Of a stretch of 64,000 nucleotides of DNA, positions 5,653 to 56,842 are shown piece by piece. The notes beneath the pieces were generated by a model, which worked only from the letters and a program-made list of their open reading frames with translations, had not been told where the DNA came from and searched no databases. Positions within the stretch are counted from its first letter, which is position 1. The number at the start of each line of letters is the position of its first letter. The translations under genes were made by a program, and so were the position numbers. Origin of the DNA: an uncultured Gammaproteobacteria bacterium (GTDB lineage Bacteria; Patescibacteriota; Patescibacteriia; Patescibacteriales; GWC2-42-12); assembly GCA_964560005.1 (NCBI GenBank), contig CAZLKB010000001.1, forward strand, positions 157,216 through 221,215, read 5' to 3'.

Positions 5653-5716
5653 TTGGAGTCCTATCGCAAAAGCAATAGAACAACCCCTAGCCCCGCCGAG
5701 GCGGGGTCCTCGGCAC
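5653..5716 (+). pseudogene. Duplicated tRNA-Leu 3' fragment interrupted by a GC-rich insert
   Basis: ttggagtcct (9/10 match to the T-loop ttcgagtcct) + ~43-nt insert containing cccctagcccc and the hairpin ccccgccgaggcgggg + gtcctcggcac (11/11 match to the tRNA 3' end). Confidence 0.45.
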
Positions 5717-5727
5717 CATCCCCGAAG

Positions 5728-7734: not shown

Positions 7735-7853
7735 GTTTTTTTAAACTAAAGTCCACGACAGCGTAGACTTTAGTCTATTTTACATTATTGTACTAATCAA
7801 TTAGCACTAAAAGTAAAGTCTACATTATCCTGGACATAAGTAATTAATCGCTT

Positions 7854-7932
7854 TGAGGCCAGAATTGGAATTGCCAGCCTGCCTGCCGGTAGGCAGGCCC
7901 AAGGCTGGTCCGCCTCTGGCGGAAACCCATGT
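7854..7932 (-). pseudogene. Duplicated tRNA-Cys 3' half (T-arm + acceptor) split in the T-loop by a 50-nt GC-rich insert
   Basis: On the minus strand: acatgggtt[50 nt]caattccaattctggcctca versus the tRNA acatgggttcaattcccatcctggcctca (27/29). The insert is tccgccagaggcgga + ccagccttgggcctgcctaccggcaggcaggctgg. Confidence 0.6.
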
Positions 7933-7940
7933 CTTAATTG

Positions 7941-8012
7941 AGGCCAGGATGGGAATTGAACCCATGTATAAGAGTTTTGCAGACTCTCGCCTTACCGCTT
8001 GGCTACCTGGCC
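7941..8012 (-). tRNA. tRNA-Cys (anticodon GCA)
   Basis: Reverse complement is ggccaggtagccaagcggtaaggcgagagtctGCAaaactcttatacatgggttcaattcccatcctggcct; U73 discriminator. Confidence 0.85.
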
Positions 8013-9802: not shown

Positions 9803-10237
9803 CTACAATGGCTCACCGCCGCCGCCTCCGCTCCCGCTGCCTCCTCCCGGCAAATTGCTAAACACAAAATAAGTTATGGAATAAGCCGCGATAATAATAA
9901 TTAAACCGATAACCGCCCGAACTAAAGTATCTTTGGCCATAGTTACTTTATTTTCATCGCCCTGCGCCGTCATCCAGTTAAAACCCGCATAAATAATTAA
10001 GACCAAAAAAATTACGCCTAACAGCCCCAGAAAAGCGGTAATCGCATATTTAATTATTTCGGCTAGGGTGGTCGGCGTGGCCTGAACCCAGCCGGCCTTT
10101 AAGCCTGTTTTATTAAGCTGATCCTTTAGATCCGCCTGCGTACTGGCATCTACCGGCGATAAAAAAATTGAAAAATTAAATAAAACAATCGCTATCATTA
10201 AACCATTAAGAATAAATTTCCAATTTTTTTTAAGCAT
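9803..10237 (-). CDS. VirB2/TrbC-like pilin paralogue 2
   Basis: Signal peptide, divergent ectodomain, IYAGFNWMTAQGDENKVTMAKDTLVRAVIGL between two TM helices, Gly/Ser tail. Confidence 0.6.
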   Translation of the reverse strand: MLKKNWKFILNGLMIAIVLFNFSIFLSPVDASTQADLKDQLNKTGLKAGWVQATPTTLAEIIKYAITAFLGLLGVIFLVLIIYAGFNWMTAQGDENKVTMAKDTLVRAVIGLIIIIAAYSITYFVFSNLPGGGSGSGGGGGEPL

Positions 10238-10247
10238 ACTGAAATTT

Positions 10248-10655
10248 TTAAGTTAATATGCCGGTAGTGGTCAGTAATTTATCAAATACCCAATAGCTGA
10301 TGGCATAAGCGGCGATAATTATAATCAATCCGATAATCGCCCGCTGGATGGTTTCTTTGGCTTTATTGACCTTGTCTTCATCGCCTTGCGCGATCATCCA
10401 ATTATAGCCGGCGTATATTATATAGACCAAGAATAGCACGCCTAAAATTCCCAGCATTGCCTGAATAATCAAACCAATAATTCCAGCCAAGTCGTTTTGG
10501 CCTTCAGCTATAGGTTGGTAAGGCGCGTTGCTAAAACCCGTACCGACATTTTTTAAATTATTAGTTGATTGGCTCTCGGCTAAAACTAAGGATGGCATAA
10601 CCAGGAACGCCATTAAGCAGAAGGAAGCTATTATATGTTTTATTATTTTTTTCAT
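10248..10655 (-). CDS. VirB2/TrbC-like pilin paralogue 3 (start re-assigned to MKKIIKHII)
   Basis: IYAGYNWMIAQGDEDKVNKAKETIQRAIIGL. The first 51 codons of the ORF-track version (to 10808) run through palindromic repeat 10669-10809 and look non-coding. Confidence 0.6.
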   Translation of the reverse strand: MKKIIKHIIASFCLMAFLVMPSLVLAESQSTNNLKNVGTGFSNAPYQPIAEGQNDLAGIIGLIIQAMLGILGVLFLVYIIYAGYNWMIAQGDEDKVNKAKETIQRAIIGLIIIIAAYAISYWVFDKLLTTTGILT

Positions 10656-10668
10656 ATGGAATTTTAAT

Positions 10669-10809
10669 TTGTCATTCCCGCCCGTCTCGCCGTAGCGTAG
10701 CCGAGGCGGACGCAGGCACCCTGTTTTCTTTTTCAGCACCGAGGAGCAATCCAGGAGGTGTAGCTTAAGACATGTTTCTAGATTCCGGCTCGGAGGCCGG
10801 AATGACAAG
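10669..10809. repeat. GC-rich palindromic element bounded by TTGTCATTCC ... GGAATGACAA
   Basis: The right module gattccggctcggaggccggaatgacaag (10781-10809) recurs at 53451-53480 and 56843-56902; the left end is ttgtcattcccgcccg. Confidence 0.7.
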
Positions 10810-11250
10810 ATAAGAAATTGTCCTGCCGGCGCTCGCCCCCTTTAAGGTTCCTTTCTCCAGCCTGGACATGACGAACATGCTGATGGCGTAAGCGGCAATA
10901 ATTATAATCGCGCCCATGATCGCCCGCCTAATCGTATCCTTAGCCTTGGTAACTTTATCTTCTTCGCCCTGGGCGGTCAGCCAGTTGTAGCCGGCGTACA
11001 AAATATAAACCAAGAGCAATACGCCGATAATGCTTAAAAATATATTGATAATGGTTTGGACTAAAATTAGAGCGCTATCGTCATTACCAAGATCATACCC
11101 GGCTCTCTCGCCCACAATCCCCACGTCCACGCCTATGCCGTCTTTTACATTATTTTTTATAAGACCGGCATTAGCCTGATCGATAAAAACAAATATGGTC
11201 AAGAAAAAAGCTACAGCTAAAATTCCTATTTTTAAAAATTTTTTACGCAT
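10765..11250 (-). CDS. VirB2/TrbC-like pilin paralogue 4, C-terminus encoded by the repeat element
   Basis: LYAGYNWLTAQGEEDKVTKAKDTIRRAIMG. It has an unusually long tail ...LVIPASEPESRNMS read from the GGATTCCGGCTCGGAGGCCGGAATGACAAG element. Confidence 0.55.
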   Translation of the reverse strand: MRKKFLKIGILAVAFFLTIFVFIDQANAGLIKNNVKDGIGVDVGIVGERAGYDLGNDDSALILVQTIINIFLSIIGVLLLVYILYAGYNWLTAQGEEDKVTKAKDTIRRAIMGAIIIIAAYAISMFVMSRLEKGTLKGASAGRTISYLVIPASEPESRNMS

Positions 11251-11263
11251 ACTTTAAAAGAAA

Positions 11264-11638
11264 TTAAAACAATCTGCTGAAAACAAATCTCCAGATGGCG
11301 TAAGAGCCGACGACGATTATAAGTCCGATAATTGATCTGGTAATCGTATCCTTGGCTTTGCTGACTTTATCTTCATCGCCCTGCGCGGTCATCCAGTTAT
11401 AACCGGCGAAAATCATCAATACCAAAAAAATTATACCGATTAAGCCTAAGGCTACGCCTATTACGGTTCCAATGATTTCGTCCAGTGATAAAATAGTCGC
11501 CTGATTATAGGGTCCTTTTACGGTCGCAACATCATCTAATTCCAGTAGCGGAGGATTGGCGGCCAAAACCAACCGGGGCAATGCCAATACCGCCATTAAA
11601 CCAATTAGGGTTATTAATTTATTATACAGCTTTATCAT
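11264..11638 (-). CDS. VirB2/TrbC-like pilin paralogue 5
   Basis: IFAGYNWMTAQGDEDKVSKAKDTITRSIIGL between two TM helices. Confidence 0.6.
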   Translation of the reverse strand: MIKLYNKLITLIGLMAVLALPRLVLAANPPLLELDDVATVKGPYNQATILSLDEIIGTVIGVALGLIGIIFLVLMIFAGYNWMTAQGDEDKVSKAKDTITRSIIGLIIVVGSYAIWRFVFSRLF

Positions 11639-11664
11639 ATAATAATACTGAAAGAATTGGTAAA

Positions 11665-12153
11665 TTATTTAAACACTTTGGAACCAACTACATTAACAAC
11701 CGACCAGCTGATTACATAAGCGGCCAACACCACAATCAGCCCGATAATGGCATTGGTAATCGTCTGCTTGGCTTTTTCTACTTTCTGTTCATCGCCCCGC
11801 GCCGTCATCCAATTATAACCGCCGTAAATCGCTAAAACCAAAAAAATAATACCCATAAAGCTTAATACCATGGTTATAACCTGGCCAATGATGCTTTTAA
11901 AAGTTGCCGTGTTATTAAAGCCGGCGCCCTGGACGGCCACGGCGTCTAGCGGTGAACCTGTATTAGTATTAAAAGCATTGCCTAGTCCGGTAGTTGATGG
12001 ATTAACTCGTTTAATATAATTATCATAAGACTCGCCGCCCACCGGTTCTTGGTCTTGAGCTAACGCCGAGGTAACTAAAAACACTGAAAAAATAATCAAA
12101 AAGAACAAAATAAAAATTGATTTAACCGTCTTTATGTTGTAACGAATTGCCAT
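11665..12153 (-). CDS. VirB2/TrbC-like pilin paralogue 6
   Basis: IYGGYNWMTARGDEQKVEKAKQTITNAIIGL; overlaps the upstream paralogue by 22 nt. Confidence 0.6.
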   Translation of the reverse strand: MAIRYNIKTVKSIFILFFLIIFSVFLVTSALAQDQEPVGGESYDNYIKRVNPSTTGLGNAFNTNTGSPLDAVAVQGAGFNNTATFKSIIGQVITMVLSFMGIIFLVLAIYGGYNWMTARGDEQKVEKAKQTITNAIIGLIVVLAAYVISWSVVNVVGSKVFK

Positions 12154-12524
12154 AAGGGTATGATTAATTTAACTATCGCGTAAGCGGAAAAAATTACTAT
12201 TATTGCAATAATAGTATTGGTTATTAAGGCTTTTGCCTTCTCCACTTTCTGCTCTTCGCCCCGCGCCGTCATCCAGGTATAACCGCCATAAATTAATATC
12301 ACCATGGCGATTACGCCTATAAACACCGGCGCTAAAACCCCGCCCAGCATTTGTACGAAGAAGGCTCCGGGGTTTGACTCCGCTTTCGCTACCGGATAGC
12401 CGGCCTCTAAGCTGGTGTTCTTTAAACCGTCGGAAAATGAAGAACCGGCGGCGGCAACCGGTAAAACCTGAAAGGCGAAAACTAGTAAAACTATTAATAC
12501 AAAAAACTCGCTAACCTTTTTCAT
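12132..12524 (-). CDS. VirB2/TrbC-like pilin paralogue 7
   Basis: IYGGYTWMTARGEEQKVEKAKALITNTIIAI. Confidence 0.6.
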   Translation of the reverse strand: MKKVSEFFVLIVLLVFAFQVLPVAAAGSSFSDGLKNTSLEAGYPVAKAESNPGAFFVQMLGGVLAPVFIGVIAMVILIYGGYTWMTARGEEQKVEKAKALITNTIIAIIVIFSAYAIVKLIIPLWQFVTT

Positions 12525-12541
12525 AAAACCGGGCTTTAAAA

Positions 12542-12964
12542 TTACTTAAGCGCGTTACTGAAAACATCAGCTATAACTTTAGTAATAGCGTAAGCGCCTA
12601 AAATCACAATCAGGCCCAAGACCGAACCGATGATAGTCTCTTTGGACTTGGTAATTTTCGCTTCATCTCCCTGCGCCAGCATCCAGCCGAATCCGGCCCA
12701 GACAATCAGGCAGAAAAAAATAACTCCGACAAAGGCTAAGATCGCGCCCACGACTTTTCCGATGATGGTCGGCAGATCGGTTTGACTGGTCTGTATGCCG
12801 CCTGTATTGGCCGTATTAACCAGGCCGCTTATCGCGCTATCCACTCCGTTCGCACCGGCCGCGAAAACTACCGGCGCCATTAGTAAAAAAAATATAACAA
12901 TCATTAGGCTGCAGAAAATTATACTATATTTTGAAGTTAAAGACATAGAAAGTTTAAAATGCAA
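12542..12964 (-). CDS. VirB2/TrbC-like pilin paralogue 8
   Basis: VWAGFGWMLAQGDEAKITKSKETIIGSVLGL. Confidence 0.6.
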   Translation of the reverse strand: MHFKLSMSLTSKYSIIFCSLMIVIFFLLMAPVVFAAGANGVDSAISGLVNTANTGGIQTSQTDLPTIIGKVVGAILAFVGVIFFCLIVWAGFGWMLAQGDEAKITKSKETIIGSVLGLIVILGAYAITKVIADVFSNALK

Positions 12965-13211
12965 AAATTAAAATGAAAAATGCTAGCTCCGCTAGCACCC
13001 CGCAGATGCGGGGTCATTGCAGAGCAATGACAATGCAAAATTCAAAATTAATAAATGATTTTACATTTTGAATTGTCATTTTGATTTTTGCATTTTACAT
13101 TTTTAACTTTTATCGCTACTCTGCCCGCGAGCCCAGGCTCCCGTTCAGAGTAGCGGTCCCCAATAAATTGAGGACGCGCTTTTCTCAACACCATACCGGT
13201 ATTGAGAATGA

Positions 13212-13643
13212 TTAGGGGTTAGTAGTGGTAACATTAACGAGCTGTGTAATAACAAAGTTAGCGATAGCGTAAGCTAATATAACGATTACTAAACCAATCA
13301 GGCCGGCGATTAGCATTTTTTTAGCCGCGCCAATCTTATCTTCACTACCTCCGGCAGTCATCCATTTGAAACCGGCGATTAAAATAATAATTACTGCAAT
13401 GATACCTAAAAAGCCCATTATCCATCTTATAATAGATGTTATGGTACTATATGCATCTAGACCGCTTCCTGCCAAACCCGCATCTTCAGCAAATTGTGCC
13501 CCGTTAGGATCAGGGGTACCATTGGCATTCCAATAGTTATCAGCACTAACAGCTAAAGCTGGCAGAGAAAAAGCAAAAACCGGAGTTAGAATCAATAAGG
13601 CCATAACCAAGCCTAAACCTTTTTTCATTAATTTTTGTCTCAT
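13212..13643 (-). CDS. VirB2/TrbC-like pilin paralogue 9 (recent tandem duplicate of paralogue 10)
   Basis: LIAGFKWMTAGGSEDKIGAAKKMLIAGLIGL; GGAGGTGAAA Shine-Dalgarno sequence upstream; near-identical to 13831-14250. Confidence 0.65.
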   Translation of the reverse strand: MRQKLMKKGLGLVMALLILTPVFAFSLPALAVSADNYWNANGTPDPNGAQFAEDAGLAGSGLDAYSTITSIIRWIMGFLGIIAVIIILIAGFKWMTAGGSEDKIGAAKKMLIAGLIGLVIVILAYAIANFVITQLVNVTTTNP

Positions 13644-13830
13644 ATTTCACCTCCGATCAAAGTCAACACAAATATAACAAAAAATGATTTGTTTATACCT
13701 GTGTTAGTGAAGTTATTAAAATATCATCTTGTTTTTATCGCTACTCTGCGCGCGAGCCCAGGCTCCTGTGCAAGGTAGCGGCCCCCAAGTGATTGAGGGC
13801 TCGCTTTTCTTAATACCGGTATTAAGAATG

Positions 13831-14250
13831 TTAAGCAGCAGTAGTAGTAACATTAACGAGCTGTGTGATAACAAAATTTGCGATAGCATAAGCCATTATA
13901 ACGATCACCAAACCTATCAAACCGGATATTAATAATTTTTTAGCCGCGCCAATCTTGTCCTCGCTGCCTCCGGCAGTCATCCATTTGAAGCCGCCGATTA
14001 AGATAACAATCACCGCGATGATGCCTAAAAAGCCCATTATCCATCTTATAATAGATGTTATGGTGCTATATGCATCAAGGCCGCTTCCTGCCAAACCCGC
14101 ATCTTCAGCAAATTGTTCTCCGTTAGTATCAGGAGTACCATTGGCATTCCAAAAGTTATCAGTACCTGCAGCAAAGGCTGGCAGAGAAAAAGCAAAAACC
14201 GGAGTTAAAATCAATACAGCCATAACTAAACCCAATATTTTTTTTCTCAT
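13831..14250 (-). CDS. VirB2/TrbC-like pilin paralogue 10
   Basis: LIGGFKWMTAGGSEDKIGAAKKLLISGLIGL; GGAGGTGAAA Shine-Dalgarno sequence upstream. Confidence 0.65.
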   Translation of the reverse strand: MRKKILGLVMAVLILTPVFAFSLPAFAAGTDNFWNANGTPDTNGEQFAEDAGLAGSGLDAYSTITSIIRWIMGFLGIIAVIVILIGGFKWMTAGGSEDKIGAAKKLLISGLIGLVIVIMAYAIANFVITQLVNVTTTAA

Positions 14251-20430: not shown

Positions 20431-21633
20431 TTATTGCTTTATGGGCATTATAATATACAAATAGCTTTCGTCTTGTTCCGGCCGAATTAGGCAGGGAGTG
20501 TTGCCGTCTATTACTTCAATTTTAACCATCTCTTTTTCAATATTGCTTAATCCCTCAAGCAAGTAGCGATAATTAACCACCATGCTGTTTTCTTCGCCCG
20601 CCACCTTGGCCTGTAAATTAGTGATATTTTCTCCGGTTTGGCCGGAGACCGAGGATATTACCACCTGGTTTTTCCCGGCCGGAAAGTCCAGGTTTATATC
20701 ATTAATACCCGCTTTGGAAAACAAAGAAGCCATTTTTACCGCGCGAATCAATTCTTGGCGGTCAATTATAATTTTAGTCTTGCAATTAGTTGGAATAATT
20801 TGCTTATAATCCGGGTATTGGCCTTCAATCAGGCGAGAAACCAGCTCAACCGAGCCGTAAGTAAATAAAATCTGGTTGTCTGAAATATAAAATTTTATTT
20901 CCCGGCTGTTTTCCTCTACCTCGTCTTCCAGATTTATAGATAAAATTCTTAATAGCTCCTGCAGGGTTTTAGCCGGTACGATAATATTTTTTTCTTCTTG
21001 GCCGCCCGCCTGTGCCGGCGGGTTGGATTTATCCGGCGCTTTCTCTTGGGTGGCGCTGGATTTAATTTGGATTTTTTTCTCTGCCAAGCGATAACTGTCG
21101 GTGGCGGCCAGGGTTAAATAATCACCGGAAAACATAAATAAAACACCGGACAACTCCAGCCTGGTTTCGTTTAACGGAGCGGCAAAGATTACTTGGGAAA
21201 TCGCGTCTTTTAAGGCCGCGGCCTGGGCGCTGAAATAATTCTTCTTTTCCACTTCGGGAATTAAAGGAAAATCTTCAGCCGATTGCCCTTTAATTTTAGC
21301 TTGATAGTTTTCACAGTCAACCAAAATCTCGTTTTCTTTTTGGTTTAATCCTATTTTTTTATTCGGCAGCAAACTTATGCAATCTAAAATAATCTTTGAA
21401 TTAACCGTGAATACGCCCTCGGCCTCAATTTTCCCCCTAACCGCGCTGATTATGCCTATTTCTAAATTGGTCGCGGCTAGTTTTATTTTCCCCTCATCCA
21501 CTTTAATTAAGATATTGTTTAAAATCGGCAAGTTTACATTTTTTCCGGCTATATGGCTTACCAGCGCCAAGCCTTGTTTTAAATTTTCCTGCAAGCTGAA
21601 TATTTTAATTCCGTTAGATTTTTCGTTGTTCAT
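20431..21633 (-). CDS. dnaN: DNA polymerase III beta sliding clamp, with GC-rich in-frame insert
   Basis: 400 aa; LATNLEIGI, SGDYLTLAATDSYRLA, LIEGQYPDYKQIIP and C-terminal YLYIIMPI; extra segment SSATQEKAPDKSNPPAQAGGQEEK. Confidence 0.9.
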   Translation of the reverse strand: MNNEKSNGIKIFSLQENLKQGLALVSHIAGKNVNLPILNNILIKVDEGKIKLAATNLEIGIISAVRGKIEAEGVFTVNSKIILDCISLLPNKKIGLNQKENEILVDCENYQAKIKGQSAEDFPLIPEVEKKNYFSAQAAALKDAISQVIFAAPLNETRLELSGVLFMFSGDYLTLAATDSYRLAEKKIQIKSSATQEKAPDKSNPPAQAGGQEEKNIIVPAKTLQELLRILSINLEDEVEENSREIKFYISDNQILFTYGSVELVSRLIEGQYPDYKQIIPTNCKTKIIIDRQELIRAVKMASLFSKAGINDINLDFPAGKNQVVISSVSGQTGENITNLQAKVAGEENSMVVNYRYLLEGLSNIEKEMVKIEVIDGNTPCLIRPEQDESYLYIIMPIKQ

Positions 21634-21914
21634 ATTTTTTGCCCGCGTAGATTTAAAATCTTAATCTTACGGTTTTATTTTTATTAATTTAAATTAATAA
21701 TATAAATATAAATAAATGATAACAATAATATGCGGGTTGATGGGTTATTATTTAGATAAATTTTAGCTAAAATTATTATTAATTTTTATTTATTGGCTGT
21801 GTTTTGGTTGTTGAAAAGTAAATCAATTTAATGGGCAGAGGGTGTATAAAAACGTGGTTATAAAAATAAAAAATTAAACCTTCAACAACCTAACCACCGC
21901 CAATCACCAAATTA

Positions 21915-23273
21915 TTAACCGTTATAAATCAATTGTTTTATTGAATTGATGTTTTGCTTGGTGCGTTCATCTTCTTCGTATTCTTTAACGACTTTATTAT
22001 AGGCGTGCATGGCGGTAGTATGATCGCGGCCTCCGAGTTCCTGGCCGATTGAAGGATAAGACGAGTTTATTTCTTTTCTCATCAAAAACATGGCGATTTG
22101 CCTGGGGACCACCAATTCTTTTTTTCGGCTTTGCCCGACAATATCTTTTATATTAATATCAAAAAATTTGGAAACCGCTTCAATTATGGTTTTCGCTGTT
22201 GTAGATTTTGATTGAAAATTGGAAATAATGCCGGCCAAAACATTCTTGGTTGAGTCAATTGAAGGTAAAGAATTATTAAATTCATAATAGGCGATTAATC
22301 TATTAAGCGCCCCCTCAAGTTCGCGTATATTACTGGTAATATTATTAGCAATATAAGCCAAAATTTCTTTATCAAGCTTATAATTTTTTTCCTTGCACTT
22401 GGTTTCTAAAATTGCGATTCTGGTTTCAACATCCGGGGCGCCGATATCGGCGATCATGCCCCACTCAAAGCGCGAAAGCAGCCTTTTTTCCAGAGCCGGA
22501 ATAGCTTTGGGCGGGCGATCGGAAGAAATTACAATTTGACGGTTAGTTTGGTGCAGATCATTAAAAGTATGGAAAAATTCTTCTTGCGTGCCGTCTTTGC
22601 CGCCCATAAAATGGATATCGTCAATTAAAAGCAAATCAACATTGCGATAGCGGTCTTTAAAATCTTTGGCTTGGCCGTTTCTGACGGCTTGGATATAATC
22701 GTTGGTGAATTTTTCACAAGAAACATATAATATTTTTTCCGTTTTTTTGGACAATTCATGGCCGATCGCTTGGAGCAAGTGGGTCTTGCCCAAACCAACC
22801 CCGCCATAAATAAAAAGCGGGTTATAGGCGTGCCCGGGGTTGGCCGCCACCGCCTGGCTGGCCGCGTGAGCCAGCTCGTTATTTTTCCCCACGATAAAGC
22901 TGTCGAAAATATAGCGGTTATTTAAGCCAAAGCGGTTGATGGTTTTTGGCTTATTTTCAACGATATTTTCAGTTTTGGCATTTTTAATAAAACTACCGGG
23001 CAAGGCTTCTTTTCTAACCTCAACCTTGTATAAAATTTCTTTTACTTCCAGAGAACTAAGGTTCTTAAAGGCATTGGCAATTTCTTTGTGGTATTTTTTT
23101 TCTAGCCAGGCTTTAGTGAAAGTGTTGGGCACGCAAATAATTATTTGGCCGCCTTCATGGGAAGAGATAAAGGTGTTTTTAAACCAAGTGGTAAAATTAG
23201 CCTTAGATAAGGTTAGCTCGATTTCGCCTAAAACAGCTTGCCAAAGCTGTTCGTTGTTCATAATTTGGGGCAT
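21915..23273 (-). CDS. dnaA: Chromosomal replication initiator DnaA
   Basis: Walker A GGVGLGKTHL, LLIDDIHF, and C-terminal HTH region RDHTTAMHAYNKV. Confidence 0.95.
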   Translation of the reverse strand: MPQIMNNEQLWQAVLGEIELTLSKANFTTWFKNTFISSHEGGQIIICVPNTFTKAWLEKKYHKEIANAFKNLSSLEVKEILYKVEVRKEALPGSFIKNAKTENIVENKPKTINRFGLNNRYIFDSFIVGKNNELAHAASQAVAANPGHAYNPLFIYGGVGLGKTHLLQAIGHELSKKTEKILYVSCEKFTNDYIQAVRNGQAKDFKDRYRNVDLLLIDDIHFMGGKDGTQEEFFHTFNDLHQTNRQIVISSDRPPKAIPALEKRLLSRFEWGMIADIGAPDVETRIAILETKCKEKNYKLDKEILAYIANNITSNIRELEGALNRLIAYYEFNNSLPSIDSTKNVLAGIISNFQSKSTTAKTIIEAVSKFFDINIKDIVGQSRKKELVVPRQIAMFLMRKEINSSYPSIGQELGGRDHTTAMHAYNKVVKEYEEDERTKQNINSIKQLIYNG

Positions 23274-23289
23274 TATGATTGAATGTTAG

Positions 23290-23706
23290 CCAGCCTGGCT
23301 TTAAATATTTTTTCGGCAAAGGACATGTCTTGCCAAGTAAAAAATAAGAATATCGCCTGACTAGATCTATTTAAAAGTAACGAGAAAGCGTTTAATAATA
23401 TAATATTAAGATTTGGTTATTATAACAGTAATAAAAAAAATATCAAACAGTGGATAGTGTTTATAAGCTGTGAATAAATAGTGTAAAAAAACCAATAATA
23501 AATTAATCGGTTAAAAAAACCGGAGAATACTCCCCCGGTTTGACTTAAGGTGTTTTAAATGTTATGTTTTATTACAGAGATGAAAATTTATTATTTGCTT
23601 AAATTCAAATTCAGCATAGAAAAATAATAAATTAATTTCCTTCCGGCGATTAATATATTCCGCCGACTTTTTAGAGCGGATTTATTTAATAAGAACGAAC
23701 TTATCT
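23290..23706. other. Candidate oriC by position (dnaA | rpmH spacer); only degenerate DnaA boxes seen
   Basis: Divergent dnaA(-)/rpmH(+) junction; AT-rich; agtggatag (23449-23457) and tgtgaataa (23469-23477) each deviate from TGTGGATAA. The AT-rich dnaA-dnaN spacer 21634-21914 is an alternative. Confidence 0.3.
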
Positions 23707-23844
23707 ATGCCAAAAAGAACTTATCAGCCGAACAAAAAAAGAGCCAAAAGAAAACACGGCTTTAGAAGACGCATGCTCTCTAAAAACGGGCGGGCGGTTT
23801 TAAAAAGAAGAAAAGCGCGGGGCAGGAAGAGGCTGACTAAATAA
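23707..23844 (+). CDS. rpmH: 50S ribosomal protein L34 (not in the ORF track, 45 aa)
   Basis: Hand translation gives [45 protein letters not shown]; sits directly upstream of rnpA. Confidence 0.9.
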
Positions 23845-23845
23845 T

Positions 23846-24193
23846 ATGCTTGCCAAGCAATATCGTTTAAGTAAAGAAAAAGATTTTGAAAAAGTTTTTA
23901 AACGCGGCAGAGCTAATTATACCGGGCAGATAGGCGTAAAGACCATAGCCAACCAGTTTAGACATAATCGTTTTGGTATTATAGTAAGCGCTAAAGTCAG
24001 CAAAAAAGCAACGGAAAGGAACAGAATAAAACGGCGAATTAGGCAGGCGCTTAGGCAATTGGATAAAAAGTTAATCGGTGGTTATGACGTTGTAATTATA
24101 GCCTTGCCCGGCCTATTAAACTTGGATTATCAAGCCGTTAAAGGTGGGCTGGAAAGAGTTTTTATAAAATTAAAACTTTTTATTGATCGTTAA
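23846..24193 (+). CDS. rnpA: RNase P protein component
   Basis: [28 protein letters not shown] motif; rpmH-rnpA-yidD-yidC synteny. Confidence 0.9.
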
Positions 24194-35759: not shown

Positions 35760-35833
35760 GGGGTGGTAGCTCAATTGGTTAGAGCGCTGCCCTGTCACGG
35801 CAGAGGTCGCGGGTTCGAGTCCCGTCCATCCCG
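35760..35833 (+). tRNA. tRNA-Asp (anticodon GTC)
   Basis: ggggtggtagctcaattggttagagcgctgccctGTCacggcagaggtcgcgggttcgagtcccgtccatcccg. Confidence 0.85.
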
Positions 35834-35836
35834 CAA

Positions 35837-35872
35837 AAAAGATAAAGCCCCCTTCGGGGCTTTATCTTTTTT
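35837..35872. terminator. Terminator hairpin after tRNA-Asp
   Basis: aaaagataaagcccc-ttcg-ggggctttatctttttt. Confidence 0.75.
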
Positions 35873-35883
35873 ATGAGATAGAA

Positions 35884-35986
35884 GACGGGACGAGAACGCC
35901 GGACCCCGCATTTGCGGGGGAGGCGGTGGCTAGGCCGAGGAGGCGGCAGCCGACGAGAGCCGAAGCCGAGTCCCGTCCATCCCGCA
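35884..35986 (+). pseudogene. Duplicated tRNA-Asp 3' end with ~70-nt GC-rich insert (att-like)
   Basis: cgagtcccgtccatcccgca at 35967-35986 is a 20/20 direct repeat of 35816-35835; preceded by gacgggacgaga and GC-rich hairpins (ccccgcatttgcgggg). Confidence 0.6.
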
Positions 35987-42204: not shown

Positions 42205-43755
42205 TCAATGTCGGAAATGCCGGAAGCCGGTAAAGACCATGGCCATGTCACGGTTATTAGCGGCGGCAATAACTTCGTCATCGCGCACCGAACCGCCGGG
42301 TTGAATGGCCGCGGTGGCGCCGGCCTCGGCGGCGGCAATCAGGCCGTCAGGGAAGGGGAAGAAGGCGTCGCTCGCTACCACACTGCCTTTAAGCGACAGC
42401 CCGGCTTTGCCCGCTTTCCAGACCGCGATTTCACTGGAGTCAACGCGGCTCATCTGGCCGGCACCGATGCCCAGCGTGCGGTCTTCGCCCGCGTATACGA
42501 TAGCGTTAGACTTTACATGCTTCACCACCCGCCAGCCAAAAAGCATGGCCCTAAGTTCCGCCGATGTCGGACGGCGCACGGTCGCATATTTTACATTTTC
42601 AGAGGTGGTGAAGTGTAGGTCATTCTCCTGGAGTAGGAAGGAATCCGCGCCTACGCTGCGAAGGTTCCGGGCCAGGGATTCGCGCATGGGCCGGAGCAGT
42701 TCTATCAATCGTAGATGTTTCTTCTTCCGCAGGATTTCTAGAGCGTCCGGCGTAAAACCCGGCGCTACGATAACCTCGGAGAAAATCTCGCTGATCGCCT
42801 CGGCACAGTCGGCGTCGAGCGGTTTGTTGACCGCGATGATGCCCCCGTAAGGCGCTTGCTGGTCGGTGGCGTACGCCTTATCCCAAGCTTCACGCAGAGT
42901 ACCGGCACGGCCGACGCCGCAGGGATTGGTGTGTTTTAAAATTACCAAGGTCGGCCCGTCGTAGGCGAATTCGCCGATGAGCCCAGCCGCGGAGGTGAGA
43001 TCCAGGATGTTGTTGTAGGAAAGTTCTTTGCCATGGAGTTGCTTAAAGAACGAACTAAATCGGCCGTACAGAGCGGCCTTCTGGTGCGGATTCTCTCCAT
43101 AGCGCAGGGGTTGAACTAGCGGAGCTTGGATGAACAGATGATTTGGCAGATCCCTTGATGCGTTACGGAAGGTTCGGCCGAGATATTCGGCGATGGCGCC
43201 GTCGTAGGCGGCGGTGCGCTCAAATACTTTCGCGGCCAGCTGGCGGCGCAGTTCCAGGGTGGTTTCACCGGTCGCCTTAATTTGTTCCGCGACCTCGGCG
43301 TAATCGGCCGGATCCACTACCACCGTGACGCTTTCATGGTTTTTGGCCGCGCTTCGAAGCATGGCCGGACCGCCGATGTCAATGTTTTCAATGGCTTTGG
43401 CCAGAGTGGCGTCTGGGTTGGCAATGGTCTGTTCAAAGGGATAGAGGTTGACCACCACCAGATCAATCGGCAGAATGCCGTGTTCCTTGGCGACGGCCTC
43501 ATGTTGGGGATTGCCGCGAATAAAGAGCAGGCCGCCATGCGCTTTGGGGTGGAGTGTTTTGACGCGGCCGCCCAGTATTTCCGGAAAGCCGGTATAAGCG
43601 CTAAGATCCGTGACCGTCAGGCCGGCCTCGCGCAGGGCTTTGGCAGTACCGCCGGTGGAAATGATTTCTATGCCAGCTTCGATTAATGCCTTGGCAAGGG
43701 GTAGTAAGCCGGTTTTATCGGAAACCGAAAGAAGTGCTCGTAATATTCTGTTCAT
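42205..43755 (-). CDS. purH: Bifunctional AICAR transformylase / IMP cyclohydrolase
   Basis: [12 protein letters not shown]...STGGTAKAL...[13 protein letters not shown]...VVVNLYPF; C-terminal FFPFPDG; conspicuously GC-rich. Confidence 0.9.
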
Positions 43756-43972: not shown

Positions 43973-44031
43973 AAATCTCTGCTAAATTCAAGATAGAATA
44001 ATAATATGGATTGCACTAGTTAATGATTATA

Positions 44032-44144
44032 GTTTTGGCTAAATTCATTTATTTTTTCGCTGCGGATCAAATTCATTATGTGCCGGCCGGTCATTCCGTT
44101 CGGCTGAGCTCACGACGAAGCCTCGCTTCAAAAATAAATGAATT
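44032..44144. repeat. Locus-specific foldback with GC-rich interior
   Basis: gttttggctaaattcatttattttt / aaaaataaatgaatttagccaaaac (25-bp arms); the interior contains ccggtcattccg. Confidence 0.7.
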
Positions 44145-44232
44145 TAGCCAAAACTTTACGATTGCAACTCGCATTATTTATAATAATATAACCTCCCCTA
44201 GCCCCTCCTTGTCATGAGGGGAACCATAATTT

Positions 44233-45363
44233 ATGTCTTTATCCATCGGCATTGTGGGTTTGCCTAATGTGGGCAAATCAACTCTATTTAACGCTTTAAC
44301 CAAGAAAAATGTGGAAGCGTCCAATTATCCTTTTTGCACCATTGATCCGAATGTGGGCGTGGTTAAAGTACCCGACGAGAGACTGGAGAAGCTGGCGGCA
44401 ATATCCAAGCCTAAAAAGATAATTCCGACCTATATTGAATTCGTGGATATCGCCGGCTTGGTTAAGGGCGCGTCGGAAGGCGAAGGCCTGGGCAACAAAT
44501 TTTTATCCCATATCCGGGAATGCGACGCCATCTTAGAAGTAGTTCGGGAATTTAAAGATGACAATATTATTCATGTTAACGGAAAAATTGACCCGGACTC
44601 TGACAGAGAAACGATTAATCTGGAATTGATTTTGGCCGATCTGGCCACGGTGGAAAAAAGATTGGAGAAAGTAATAAAGGAGGCTAAGAGCGGCAATAAA
44701 GAAATGATCGTTTTAAAAAATTTGCTGGAGAAAATAAAAATACAACTGGAAGCCGGCAAGGCGGTGCGCGAGATGAGTTTAACTGAAGATGAAACTAGAG
44801 AAGTTAAAATTTTAGGATTATTGACGGTAAAACCGATTATTTATGTGCTGAATACTAAGGGAGAAAACCCCCTTTCCGCCGAAGGCGGATCCGCCCCTGT
44901 GGGAAGCCCCCCTCCGCCAGAGGCGGACAAATTTATCAAGGGGGCTGAAAATACTCGGAATGGAAAAGTTATAAAGATTGACGCCAAGATTGAAGCGGAA
45001 ATCGCCGGTTTGCCCGAAGCCGAACAGGCGGAATATATTAAAGAATTAGGTTTAAACCAAAGCGGTTTGGATAAATTAATAAAAGCGTCTTATGAAATTT
45101 TGGGCTTGATAACTTTTTTAACCACCGGAGCGGACGAAACCCGCGCCTGGACGATAAAACGCGGGACTAAGGCACCCGAAGCCGCCGGCGTGATTCACAC
45201 GGACTTCGCTAAAGGCTTTATCCGCGCCGAAGTGATAGATTGGCGGAAGTTTATTGAAGCCGGAAGCGAGGCTAAAGCGCGCGAGCTAGGGTGGATGAGA
45301 ACCGAAGGCAAGAATTACATCATGCAGGATGGGGATGTATGTAATTTTTTGATTAATAGCTAA
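44233..45363 (+). CDS. ychF: Ribosome-binding ATPase YchF, with in-frame GC-rich palindromic insert
   Basis: [44 protein letters not shown]-terminal TGS region; extra [18 protein letters not shown]. Confidence 0.9.
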
Positions 45364-45700
45364 CACTCCGCTTGGGCCCTCCGGGCAGGGCAAAATCCGG
45401 GGTGGTTATAAAATATAATAAAAAAGCCATCAGCGCCGGAAGGCGTTTTATTATTGTTAAAAATGTGCTGTACTAAGAGTATAAACTAATCACTCTAACA
45501 TTAAATATAATCAAAGCTCTAAGCCAAAATGGTTGCATATTTCTCTTTTTGCCGTTTTAGTGGCTTTCTTTACTGTCGTTTCAATCCGCCGGTCGGCTGA
45601 TTGAAACGGCAAGCAAGCAGGCGGTCGATCATCAAGCCGGCAAAATTATCGCTTAGCGAACGCAACTTAAAATTATTTAGAGTTTTGCGAAAAAAAACTT

Positions 45701-46999: not shown

Positions 47000-48313
47000 T
47001 TAAGTTTGTACTTCTCTTTCCATCACCACTATCTCCCGCCAAACCTTTTGCAGTTCGCGGCCGTAAATAATTGTGTCGCGACCGGTTAGTTTTACAAAAA
47101 TATTAGTTCTTAAATTTTCCGGAATCGGATTAATAATTTTTAGGCCGGCCAAGTTAGGATTAAGAAAAATATTTTTTCGTTTGCTATAGAACGACGGCCA
47201 GACTATGACGATTCTGCCGCCGGGTTTTAAGATTTTTTTAAATTCAGACAAGCTTTTTGTATAAAGATTTTCTAAGTCGCTCACGGTTTTATTTATATCA
47301 AACCAGCCTCGCTGCGGACCTAAGTAGGGTTCGGTGATGATGGCGTCAACAAAATTTGGTGCGATATGCTCCGAAATTTGAGTTGCATCCGCTTTCAGTA
47401 ATTGAAAATTGAAAATTGCTTGTCCCCGGATGGGGGAAAATTGAAAATTTTTCTTGGTCCACTCAATATTAATTTTAGTGTTTTCAATCGCCTTATTTGA
47501 GATGTCTGAGCCGATAATGTGTTCGTAGCCCATAAGCATGGCCTCGGTTAAAATAGTGCCGGAACCGCAGAAGGGGTCTAGGATAATCTTTTCGCCTCTT
47601 TCCTTAATATTTTTTTCGTCCAGAGAATTTAACCCCCCTAGCCCCTCCGCCTCGGCAAGCCCAAGGCGAGACGGGCCCTTACAAGGGGGGTAGAGAGACG
47701 GAGCAACCGCTAAGTTTATCATTATTTGCGCCAGTTTGGGCGGCAGCATGCCGGAGCGGTCGTCGCGCGCCGGGCGGCCGTAATCGCGGAACGACAATTC
47801 TTTAAAAGGCTGGACGGCTAAGGTCTTACCCAGAAGCAGTTTATTGTTAAATTCAATAATTACGATCTCAACTCCCCTATCAGAGGTTAATTTGTTTTGT
47901 TCCACCACTACGCTGGACAGGGTCGGCTCCCGGCTTATGACCCAGCGGCTGTTAATACCGGATTGTTTTAACATTTTTTTAAATTCCATGGCTAATGCCT
48001 TAATGTTGGTTTTACTTTTCCCGTAATTGGAAATGCCGAACATGAATTTTTTTTCGCTTGAATCAGGCTTGGCGAAATTCGTCACGGCGTTTAAAATACC
48101 ACTTGTGCTATGAGAATTTATTTCGTCGTAGATTAGGCCGAATTTAACCGTACCGCCGATTTTATTAATAATATTAGGCGATATTTCCCGGTTGGTTTCT
48201 AAAATTGCGATATTGGTTTGGATTAAAGATAGTTTGTCCTCATAGCTAAAAACAGCCGATAATTCGGCTAAAGATAGGGTAGGGTTAGAGCCTAGAATAA
48301 AGAAGTATTGCAT
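47000..48313 (-). CDS. SAM-dependent RNA/DNA methyltransferase (UPF0020/Trm11-RlmL-like), with GC-rich in-frame block
   Basis: ILDPFCGSGTIL (motif I) and ITEPYLGP (motif IV-like); N-terminal THUMP-like region is plausible. Confidence 0.65.
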   Translation of the reverse strand: MQYFFILGSNPTLSLAELSAVFSYEDKLSLIQTNIAILETNREISPNIINKIGGTVKFGLIYDEINSHSTSGILNAVTNFAKPDSSEKKFMFGISNYGKSKTNIKALAMEFKKMLKQSGINSRWVISREPTLSSVVVEQNKLTSDRGVEIVIIEFNNKLLLGKTLAVQPFKELSFRDYGRPARDDRSGMLPPKLAQIMINLAVAPSLYPPCKGPSRLGLAEAEGLGGLNSLDEKNIKERGEKIILDPFCGSGTILTEAMLMGYEHIIGSDISNKAIENTKINIEWTKKNFQFSPIRGQAIFNFQLLKADATQISEHIAPNFVDAIITEPYLGPQRGWFDINKTVSDLENLYTKSLSEFKKILKPGGRIVIVWPSFYSKRKNIFLNPNLAGLKIINPIPENLRTNIFVKLTGRDTIIYGRELQKVWREIVVMEREVQT

Positions 48314-52793: not shown

Positions 52794-53312
52794 TTAATTA
52801 GGTCCTTCCCACCCCTGCGGAAATGATGAGTTGTTTGACGATGATGAGCCATTATCTTTAAACCAATTAATTGTTGCCCATTTTCCCGCTTGTCCCGCGT
52901 CAATGCCCAATACCGTGAAAACCAGTTGAATAATCATATAACTGGTGAAAACTATGACCAGGCCAACGACTGCTCCGGTAATCGCTTTTTTACCTATGTC
53001 TACACGCTCGGCGCTGCCGGCTGAAATCAGCCACATAACACCTCCATAAATAAAAGCCAATAAAGCCAACGAGCCGACTATGCCTAGAATAAAGTTAGAT
53101 GCGACTATTGCCACGCCGACTATTTCATTCAAGGTATAATTTCCGCAATTGCTGCTAGTACAGCCTTCGGGCGGAGGAGTACTTGGATTTTGTAATATTG
53201 GTACGCCCGGTTGAGTGGATGCTGGATCCGCCGCATATACGGTAAATACAGAAATAGAAAAGACGATAAATAAAAGTAAGGTTATAATTGATAATTTTAT
53301 TAATTTTGGCAT
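52794..53312 (-). CDS. VirB2/TrbC-like pilin paralogue 11 (isolated copy, long Ser/Asn tail)
   Basis: IYGGVMWLISAGSAERVDIGKKAITGAVVGL between two TM helices; tail ...KDNGSSSSNNSSFPQGWEGPN. Confidence 0.55.
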   Translation of the reverse strand: MPKLIKLSIITLLLFIVFSISVFTVYAADPASTQPGVPILQNPSTPPPEGCTSSNCGNYTLNEIVGVAIVASNFILGIVGSLALLAFIYGGVMWLISAGSAERVDIGKKAITGAVVGLVIVFTSYMIIQLVFTVLGIDAGQAGKWATINWFKDNGSSSSNNSSFPQGWEGPN

Positions 53313-53321
53313 ATTGTGTTA

Positions 53322-53480
53322 TTGTCATTGCGGGCTTGACCCGCAATCTAGGTGTAAGAAGTAAATAATTAAAAAATATAATAAAAAAATTAGCAAGTGA
53401 AATAGTTTAAAGCGTTTTTCGATAATTTATAATTTGTACTGTTTGCTCCTGGATTCCGGCTCGGTGGCCGGAATGACAAA
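53322..53480. repeat. GC-rich-ended palindromic element filling the whole spacer (TTGTCATT...AATGACAA)
   Basis: Left end ttgtcattgcgggcttgacccgcaat (53322-53347); right end ggattccggctcggtggccggaatgacaaa (53451-53480). Confidence 0.7.
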
Positions 53481-56632: not shown

Positions 56633-56662
56633 TCCGCCAGAGGCGGATCCGCCCTTGGCGGA
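56633..56662. repeat. Tandem GC hairpin modules TCCGCCAGAGGCGGA + TCCGCCCTTGGCGGA
   Basis: The first 15-mer is identical to 44913-44927 (inside ychF) and is the reverse complement of 7909-7923. Confidence 0.75.
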
Positions 56663-56842
56663 CAAACAATTTTCAATGATTAAATTTTTCAATTTTTAAT
56701 AAGTTAATTACTTGAACGCCAACCATTCTAGTTAATTTCATTATAACACAAAATAAAAAACCGCCTAAGGCGGTCGGCTATGGTTCAATGGCTTAAATGG
56801 CGACTGCTTGCCTGAAAACTTAAGTGGGAATGGAAAATAAAT

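Follow-up and report, generated by a model that had tools for sequence, protein, structure and literature searches.

We have analyzed a 64-kb stretch of contig CAZLKB010000001.1 (hereafter the window, always meaning the whole stretch) in which the gene ychF carries a block of GC-rich palindromic DNA inside its reading frame. The window has a G+C content of ca. 40%, and the proteins it encodes are most similar to those of Candidatus Falkowbacteria and of further Patescibacteria, a group also known as the candidate phyla radiation (CPR), whose genomes are among the smallest and most streamlined in bacteria. The product of the host gene matches the Pfam domains MMR_HSR1 and YchF-GTPase_C and the solved YchF structures 1JAL, 8KIE and 2DBY (E = 1e-109). 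With 376 amino acids (aa) it is longer than the modal 352-354 aa of its 120 best homologues. A sequence-only reading of this DNA had placed at 44870-44927 an in-frame segment of about 18 aa that other YchF proteins lack, and had taken it to be built from hairpin modules also present between genes. The block does lie in frame within an intact open reading frame (ORF) and in the place indicated, the string quoted for it beginning at 44872. GC-rich and palindromic as described, it covers only the interior of a nested hairpin of greater extent (Table 1), and measured against the nearest orthologues the insertion amounts to ca. 22 aa or 66 nucleotides (nt), not 18 aa. Two more genes of the window, dnaN and a methyltransferase gene, are colonised as well.

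Table 1. Positions in the window of ychF, the parts of its insert, related hairpins and the other colonised genes
Feature	Position	Strand	Basis
ychF, intact ORF of 376 aa, host gene	44233..45363	+	ORF list, Pfam, structure matches
Whole nested hairpin composite, accounting for the extra ~22 aa	44868..44944	+	Fold; absent from P0002, P0005, L161 and L001
Outer hairpin, 5' arm CCCCCTT, pairing with 44938-44944 in the predicted fold	44868..44874	+	
Module 1, TCCGCC-GAA-GGCGGA, perfect 6-bp stem, translated S-A-E-G-G	44875..44889	+	Two mismatches to the 15-mer TCCGCCAGAGGCGGA
Module 2, degenerate TCCGCC-CCT-GTGGGA, forming a double hairpin with module 1	44890..44904	+	
Spacer AGCCCCCC, equal to the C-run of the hairpin after the double hairpin in L162	44905..44912	+	Window/L162 DNA alignment
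Module 3, TCCGCC-AGA-GGCGGA and CAAA tail, in another frame (P-P-E-A-D-K)	44913..44931	+	Exact 15-mer
Loop remnant TTTATC and outer 3' arm AAGGGGG, translated F-I-K-G	44932..44944	+	
ACCTCCCCTAGCCCCTCCTTGTCATGAGGGGA, intergenic, just upstream of the ychF start, C-run/G-run hairpin family	44191..44222	+	
Intergenic double hairpin (TCCGCCAGAGGCGGA-TCCGCCCTTGGCGGA) with CAAA tail, between smc and comM	56633..56666	+	Flanks by Pfam
Intrinsic-terminator-like hairpin, CCGCC/GGCGG stem followed by a T-run, smc end	56759..56775	-	Terminator scan
Hairpin cluster between tRNA-Leu and tRNA-Val (CCCCTAGCCCCGCCGAGGCGGGGTCCTCGGC), motifs of both families	5681..5718	+	
50-nt hairpin block starting with TCCGCCAGAGGCGGA, in the T-loop of a partial tRNA-Cys 3' duplicate	7872..7923	-	
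dnaN, beta sliding clamp, 400 aa, third colonised gene	20431..21633	-	Pfam, PDB matches
17-aa in-frame DnaN insert ATQEKAPDKSNPPAQAG	21004..21054	-	Protein alignment and DNA
UPF0020/N6_N4-type methyltransferase, 436 aa, second colonised gene	47000..48313	-	Pfam
~34-aa in-frame nested GC hairpin in the methyltransferase (ACCCCCCTTGTAAGGGCCC...GCCGAGGCGGAGGGGCTAGGGGGGTT)	47606..47707	-	Alignment and DNA
6-aa in-frame insert with hairpin TCCCCCATCCGGGGA in the methyltransferase	47411..47437	-	Alignment and DNA

The insertion in ychF and its nested hairpins

The closest orthologues (P0002 and P0005, 82-83% identical) are proteins of 354 aa from which the segment is absent. Between KPIIYVLN and the next strand their loop measures 17 aa, against 39 aa in the YchF of the window, and at the DNA level the loops of L161 (the locus of P0005) and L001 are short and unstructured with no hairpin, that is, they are empty sites. 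For these reasons the window ychF carries a clean in-frame insertion of 22 aa (66 nt), of a length divisible by three, and the interpretation given in the sequence-only reading is supported. The insert sits directly after the strand of the G4 motif NxxE, at a point where the YchF of Haemophilus influenzae (1JAL) and Escherichia coli (8KIE) have a gap in the alignment. This placement relies on sequence alignment to the solved structures; an AlphaFold2 model of the window protein (from a 64-sequence alignment) was poor, with a mean pLDDT of 53, and was not used.

The composite has a minimum free energy of -39.8 kcal/mol (z = -3.4) and none of 200 dinucleotide shuffles folded as well, while control segments of ychF gave z values of -0.7 and -1.8 in the same test. 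Its plan is that of an outer hairpin, CCCCCTT...TTTATC-AAGGGGG, whose loop holds a double hairpin, a C-run spacer and a third module. Stems are of 6-8 bp, loops of 3-4 nt and modules of 15-18 nt, and the composites reach 40-100 nt. The same units are present between genes in identical copies, as the sequence-only reading had noticed: the 15-mer TCCGCCAGAGGCGGA has exact copies at 44913-44927 (+), 56633-56647 (+) and 7909-7923 (-), and the junction GGCGGATCCGCCC is common to 44884-44896 and 56642-56654. The double hairpin at 44875-44904 and the intergenic one at 56633-56662 share, besides this 13-mer, ca. 25 of 30 positions (counted by eye). The outer hairpin is found uninterrupted, as CCCCCTTTATCAAGGGGG, twice in the related locus L162, and also between genes in L165.

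The terminator scan detected no T-tail on the sense strand of the hairpins in the ychF insert, and an internal intrinsic terminator was thus discarded. A known RNA family was discarded as well: with Rfam 15 no structured RNA other than tRNAs matched the window at gathering score, and the best match in 44000-45600 had only E = 0.9.

Repeat-induced chimerism in a metagenome-assembled contig might produce such a block; the exact YchF protein of the window comes from a single NCBI contig and assemblers can be misled by short repeats. Such an artefact is nevertheless extremely unlikely. In L162, which derives from an independent sample and assembler (Logan SRR22387917), the same site has the same composite architecture, CCCCCTTT-CCGCCcaaGACGGA-TCCGCCtctGGCGGA...CCCCCTTTATCAAGGGGG, and nine other independently assembled orthologues have hairpin inserts there. 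Furthermore, the reading frame is intact, the DnaN of the window is reproduced with its insert in a Logan assembly, and assembler k-mers are far longer than the 15-nt repeat. The alignment of the window with L162 leaves module 3 as a gap, located at the stem-loop junction of the CCCCCTTTATCAAGGGGG hairpin, and this module looks like a secondary insertion of ca. 18 nt relative to the L162 composite.

A recurrent insertion site in ychF and in two other genes

The loop is hypervariable in the clade, with at least 19 aa in 52 of 119 orthologues; PLIKG, PPLKGG, PLLGKERG, PLYQGGE and PPLSRGE are among the peptides of the enlarged loops. In a neighbour-joining tree of the 119 orthologues, calculated with the loop masked, proteins with and without an insert are mixed among the branches, and at least 22 changes of loop state are required by parsimony. 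Three states are found in the small clade of the window itself: 39 aa in P0001, 17 aa in P0002 and 26 aa in P0003, the last with a different hairpin. The DNA was compared for nine other insert-bearing orthologues (L162-L170), which makes ten inserts with that of the window. All ten are GC-rich perfect or nested hairpins (fold z values of ca. -3.0 to -3.4), and all ten preserve the frame and are free of stops, in a sample taken from intact proteins.

The composites of the window and L162 can be aligned as DNA, and yet the codon phase is equal in only 46 of the 134 aligned columns, which are those of the conserved flanks. The 13-mer TTTATCAAGGGGG gives FIKG in the window and L164, LYQGG in L162 and L169, and LSRGE in a second copy in L162. 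Similarly, the window insert alone yields both SAEGG and PPEAD from the CCGCC module, which is also read as PPKTD. Because the same DNA is kept across two or three frames, it is the DNA and not the peptide that is conserved, the signature expected of a nucleic-acid-level element rather than of a selected peptide.

The preservation of the frame also bears on whether the insert reaches the mature protein, as it would not if ribosomes bypassed it (as in byps or T4 gene 60), if it were removed from the mRNA or if it were an orphan guide RNA. In yeast mitochondria, translational bypassing acts on hairpin inserts that are GC-rich and lie in AT-rich genes, according to work cited within PMC4478555, and stem-loop arrays of the TIGR type have been described in CPR as palindrome-flanked structures that lie in frame inside coding sequences and correspond to disordered loops (bioRxiv 10.64898/2026.09.09.750476). 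We regard this whole set of possibilities as very unlikely. Bypass elements interrupt the frame or carry stops and the ten ychF inserts do neither; being in frame and stop-free is needed neither for bypass nor for excision, though the sample is biased to intact genes. Besides, the double-hairpin elements of fungi and the GC clusters of var1 stay in the transcripts (PMC2800124). As for the guide RNA, a TIGR unit has two 9-nt spacers with box C/D between stem arms and is found in or beside the tas gene, which has a Nop domain. The hairpins of the window have loops of 3-4 nt, too small for two 14-nt units (box C, 9-nt spacer, box D), they are repeats and not unique spacers, they are located in ychF, dnaN and the methyltransferase gene with no tas nearby, and no ORF with a Nop domain was detected in the 64-kb window. 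The loop size and the lack of a tas gene in the window rule out a tigRNA.

A comparable situation was found in the methyltransferase. Its orthologue in L161 has 393 aa and is 75% identical, and the window protein contains two inserts (Table 1), the larger of which folds with z = -3.45 (1 of 200 shuffles as good). The methyltransferases of relatives have different hairpin inserts in the same two loops. In the case of DnaN, the modal length of the orthologues is 383 or 375 aa against 400 aa in the window, and 100 of 120 orthologues have a minimal loop at the insertion site. The core of the DnaN insert is the hairpin CCCGCC-GGCACA-GGCGGG at 21005-21022, translated as NPPAQAGG. At the protein level, other lineages have LPAPAG, PPALTG, LPAEQAG or PPAGQAG at this very site, and LPAQAG, MPAQAG or LTAQAG in a second DnaN loop. 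These peptides presumably match what the GCCTGCC...GGCAGGC hairpin family, present between genes of the window, would encode, a link made at the protein level. RecA, EF-P, ComM and the solute-binding protein were free of indels of at least 4 aa when compared with the same relatives. The BLAST-based scan for indels splits inserts into pieces, and its per-piece statistics were not used. The sequence-only reading had caught one instance of a phenomenon that is recurrent in several genes and lineages.

Intergenic copies, probable landing sites and other features of the window

The TCCGCC-type 15-mer has five matches in the window (three exact copies of TCCGCCAGAGGCGGA and copies with two mismatches at 44875 and 56648) when 0.13 were expected, and none of 100 shuffles reached five. 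The pattern TCCGCC-N3-GGCGGA has five copies in these 64 kb and a total of four in 167 other loci, with no copy in any non-CPR locus. If perfect GC-rich hairpins are considered (stem of at least 6 bp, loop of 3-5 nt), there are 20 in the window against ca. 1.5 in composition-matched shuffles. Twelve of the 20 are intergenic, though intergenic DNA makes up 21% of the window.

Equivalent sequences are found at other places in the relatives. The in-frame ACCTCCCCTAACCCCTCCTTATTAAGGAGGGG of the L167 ychF is near-identical to the intergenic repeat ACCTCCCCTAGCCCCTCCTTGTCATGAGGGGA of the window, CCGCCAGAGGCGGACAA is found also at L001:9900, 85 nt upstream of ychF, and CCCCCTTGATAAAGGGGG is located after efp in L165. 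In both the window (44202-44221) and L162 (8344-8363) the ychF start codon is preceded, at 11 nt, by a hairpin CCCCTC-CTTGTCAT-GAGGGG. The 3' arm of this leader hairpin resembles a Shine-Dalgarno sequence, and C-run/G-run hairpins often pair a CCTCC(TTA) arm, like the 3' end of the 16S rRNA, with a (T)AAGGAGG arm. Hairpins rich in GC and repeats rich in G (AAGCCCCCTTCGGGGCTT, CCCCGCATTTGCGGGG and GGAGGCGG) are also densely packed at 35845-35962, right after tRNA-Asp (35760-35834), where they form one more cluster between genes.

The hairpins might be kept because they serve the host. At the RNA level they could pace translation between the halves of the G domain, provide a site of RNase processing or stabilisation, or sequester GGAGG runs of Shine-Dalgarno type, and at the protein level they could be a lineage-specific loop by the nucleotide-specificity motif that tunes YchF. 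The same loop is filled in 52 of the 119 orthologues and adjoins the G4 motif, some inserts are identical throughout a clade (e.g., DLTPGPLLGKERGEN), the stems stay perfect, many C-run/G-run hairpins pair a CCTCC-type with an AAGGAGG-type arm, and there is a matching hairpin in the ychF leader of the window and L162. All this would fit a function. However, the closest relatives are free of inserts, from one lineage to another the inserts vary in their sequence and length, in how many there are and in the frame in which they are read, and the same modules turn up in other, unrelated genes as well as in a fragment of a tRNA. Nor do the hairpins look like terminators on the sense strand or match Rfam. 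A host function is therefore considered unlikely.

Two natural pairs of filled and empty sites show where the modules land, namely in the loops of hairpins. One of them is contained in the window: the 50-nt block is placed exactly in the T-loop of a tRNA-Cys fragment, ACATGGGTT-block-CAATTCC..., and the intact tRNA has the continuous ACATGGGTTCAATTCC. The other is that of L169, where a 36-nt palindrome is found exactly in the loop of the otherwise uninterrupted CCCCCTTTATCAAGGGGG hairpin (CCCCCTT-palindrome-TATCAAGGGGG). The tRNA-Cys fragment is a 28-nt duplicate of the 3' end (7853-7935, minus strand) located 7 nt downstream of the intact tRNA-Cys (7940-8012), a kind of duplicate that integrase-mediated events leave.

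The empty sites speak as well about a possible origin of the palindromes in place, by slippage, template switching with quasi-palindrome correction or hairpin-opening repair, in which case their similarity would be a convergence driven by composition. The units are tiny (15-18 nt), simple C-run/G-run stems could arise repeatedly, and neither a transposase nor a consistent target-site duplication was found in the window ORFs and the inserts examined. On the other hand, exact 15- to 17-mers including the loop triplet and the flanks (TTT...CAA) are present at unlinked sites and in another genome, and the match of ca. 25 of 30 positions (by eye) between the ychF double hairpin and the intergenic one is unexpected if they were independent. 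Both arms are absent from the empty sites, so neither arm was templated by the local sequence, which also rules out P-nucleotide-like or locally templated palindromes. We find an origin in place quite improbable. A diversity-generating retroelement was discarded too: the window has neither a reverse transcriptase nor a template repeat, and the variation is by insertion instead of by A-specific substitution.

The orientation of the copies was also considered. The arrangement TTT-CCGCC...GGCGGA-CAA is on the minus strand at 7.9 kb and on the plus strand at 44.9 and 56.6 kb, and the first copy and the other two flank on opposite sides the GC-skew minimum at dnaN/dnaA. This would fit a replication-strand-specific mechanism acting on single-stranded DNA, with three independent loci only. 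At 20431-24190 the minus-strand genes dnaN and dnaA are neighbours of the plus-strand genes rnpA and yidC, with AT-rich gaps at ca. 21.63-21.91 and 23.27-23.85 kb and a minimum of the cumulative GC skew at ca. 21.5-22 kb. The chromosomal replication origin thus appears to be within the window.

Some other features of the window deserve mention. Between purH and ychF (44032-44154) there is a perfect 25-bp inverted repeat, GTTTTGGCTAAATTCATTTATTTTT, around a GC-richer core of 73 nt; it is single-copy in the window, folds with z = -6.6 and belongs to a family other than the GC hairpins. It could be a structure like a MITE (miniature inverted-repeat transposable element) or a regulatory one. The neighboring purH (AICARFT/IMPCHase and MGS domains; 42205-43755, minus strand) is full length, with 516 aa and 51-56% G+C against ca. 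40% in the window, and the syntenic relatives L161, L165 and L167 have a version of only ca. 200 aa, which suggests that the window purH was replaced or acquired by horizontal transfer. Nine small paralogous ORFs in tandem at 9803-14247 (minus strand) all match T4SS_pilin (PF18895), with two more copies at 16-489 and 52794-53312. The sequence GCGAGCCCAGGCTCC is found at 13123 and 13748, inside or between these ORFs, and a hairpin with its flanks, GAT-TCCGGCTCGG[A/T]GGCCGGA-ATGACAA, is found twice (10784-10801 and 53455-53472), each time just upstream of a T4SS_pilin gene, where it may form a 5' structure, regulatory or leader, common to both genes.

Relationship to known repeats and possible mobility

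In-frame palindromic repeats are already known. The sequence-only reading had named the Rickettsia palindromic elements (RPEs) as precedent, and rightly so, but the phenomenon is wider: repetitive extragenic palindromes (REPs) with the GTAG/CGTC tag are intragenic in Opitutus, Thauera, Xanthomonas and others, where copies in pairs or groups code for 20-30 aa (Di Nocera et al., 2013; PMC3733652). These often hit replication and repair genes, are thought to occupy flexible loops, and different REPs can strike approximately the same site of orthologous genes (PMC3733652). The novelty is for this reason narrower than had been implied. Like the window hairpins, REPs are short GC-rich palindromes located mainly downstream of genes, often as dimers or clusters, with a minority inside ORFs. 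In the window, 12 of the 20 hairpins are intergenic and those at 56633-56662 and 44875-44904 are double, as in REPs and REPINs. In contrast, the tag was within 6 nt in 1 of 29 hairpins, which is chance level (ca. 6% per site) and rules out membership in the tagged REPs. The modules are also smaller (stem of 6-8 bp, loop of 3-4 nt) and nested in each other's loops, and Patescibacteria are outside the phyla surveyed for REPs (PMC3733652). The cognate REP-associated tyrosine transposase gene (RAYT; Y1/HUH) usually has REPs at its flanks; no such gene was detected among the 60 window ORFs of at least 100 aa, in 64 kb of a contig of at least 299 kb.

RPEs have been described as selfish palindromes lying in frame in conserved housekeeping genes of Rickettsia, at positions compatible with the protein fold (Ogata et al., 2000, as reviewed in PMC10969869). 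The likeness is clear in that both are multicopy selfish palindromes of a reduced, AT-rich genome, present between genes and in ORFs where the frame of conserved genes is kept. However, RPEs have ca. 100-150 bp, with a conserved peptide per family and a fixed frame, whereas the units of the window have 15-18 nt and are read in two or three frames; they also lack the CGTC tag that, among the families RPE-1 to RPE-10, RPE-4 and RPE-6 carry. The GC clusters, double-hairpin elements and repetitive hairpin-forming elements of mitochondria are another set of GC-rich hairpins in AT-rich genomes, whose units merge, are shuffled, build double or multiple hairpins and occasionally enter genes, with copies in protein and rRNA genes at length-variable sites that remain in the transcripts (PMC4478555, PMC2800124). 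They are organellar and have no sequence relationship to the window elements, so we propose a functional analogy and no homology. GC clusters have a putative AG/TAG target duplication, which is not seen in the window elements. MITEs are elements of 50-500 bp that derive from an insertion sequence and have terminal inverted repeats and a target-site duplication. The composites are hairpins of 40-100 nt; a 9-nt direct repeat, TCCCCCTTT, flanks the insert of L162, no duplication is seen in L169 or in the tRNA-Cys case, and no parent insertion sequence was identified. Our search of the literature yielded no description of such a hairpin family in Patescibacteria. What is new here is the untagged modules of 15-18 nt, their nesting in loops and the Patescibacterial host, and not a new category of repeat.

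We think it quite probable that these are selfish, REP-like mini-hairpin repeats of 15-18 nt which insert in hairpin loops and survive only when they preserve the frame in a permissive loop of the protein. GC-rich modules of this kind would have spread within a Patescibacterial lineage, with a preference for the loops of existing hairpins that would generate the nested composites. Most copies would remain intergenic, some sharing their stem with genuine terminators. An intragenic copy would persist only if it adds a net number of nucleotides divisible by three, carries no stop codon and falls in a protein loop that is permissive, as the one directly after the G4 NxxE strand would be in YchF. 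By direct reading, TCCGCCAGAGGCGGA has no stop codon in any of the six frames, and because GC-rich palindromes are nearly stop-free only the length would matter for survival inside a gene. The DNA would be translated into a linker rich in Pro, Gly, Ser and Ala, presumably disordered. Since an occupied loop becomes a safe site for further insertion, the first hairpin would turn it into a landing pad for others, and this would account for both the nesting and the hot spot.

We infer that the modules are mobile, that the insert is translated and that its peptide is neutral. A mobilising enzyme would be a hairpin-specific transposase acting on single-stranded DNA (Y1/IS200-type), and a route by recombination or template switching is the other candidate. 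In the close loci the only Y1 transposase is a frameshifted one of the IS200/IS605 type (L170, 13380-13870), 2.5 kb downstream of ychF, with the N-terminal part of its Y1_Tnp gene in another frame and without homologue in the window. Several points weigh against the selfish-repeat explanation. No domain of a transposase, an integrase or a nuclease was found in the 60 window ORFs of at least 100 aa, target-site duplication is not consistent (none in L169 or in the tRNA-Cys case), and the number of module copies in the window is modest. The neighbour-joining tree is approximate, and repeated precise losses of an ancestral insert or recombination of alleles could make independent gains look more numerous than they are. 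Finally, the orthologues come from intact gene calls, outside which frame-breaking insertions would fall, and the exact YchF protein is known from one assembly.

It is possible, though doubtful, that the hairpins represent an active and undescribed class of minimal mobile DNA that targets single-stranded hairpin loops, perhaps with an orientation set by replication, and that continually remodels the surface loops of essential proteins, YchF, DnaN and RNA/DNA methyltransferases among them. If so, selfish DNA and not adaptation would drive a measurable share of the divergence and length variation of CPR proteins. In practical terms, the inserts inflate the apparent divergence of proteins, create spurious low-complexity "CPR-specific insertions" and can mislead alignments, phylogenies and structure prediction; they could also serve as fine-scale strain markers. 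The nested architecture, with its natural filled and empty sites, makes a tractable system for the movement of minimal palindromes. To us the most interesting part is that, in ultra-small genomes, essential genes contain hot spots that are hit repeatedly. Selfish hairpins that enter once and again the essential genes of the streamlined CPR genomes are a parallel to those of Rickettsia and mitochondria, suggesting that in-frame repeats in general easily colonise reduced genomes in which selection is weak or repair is limited.

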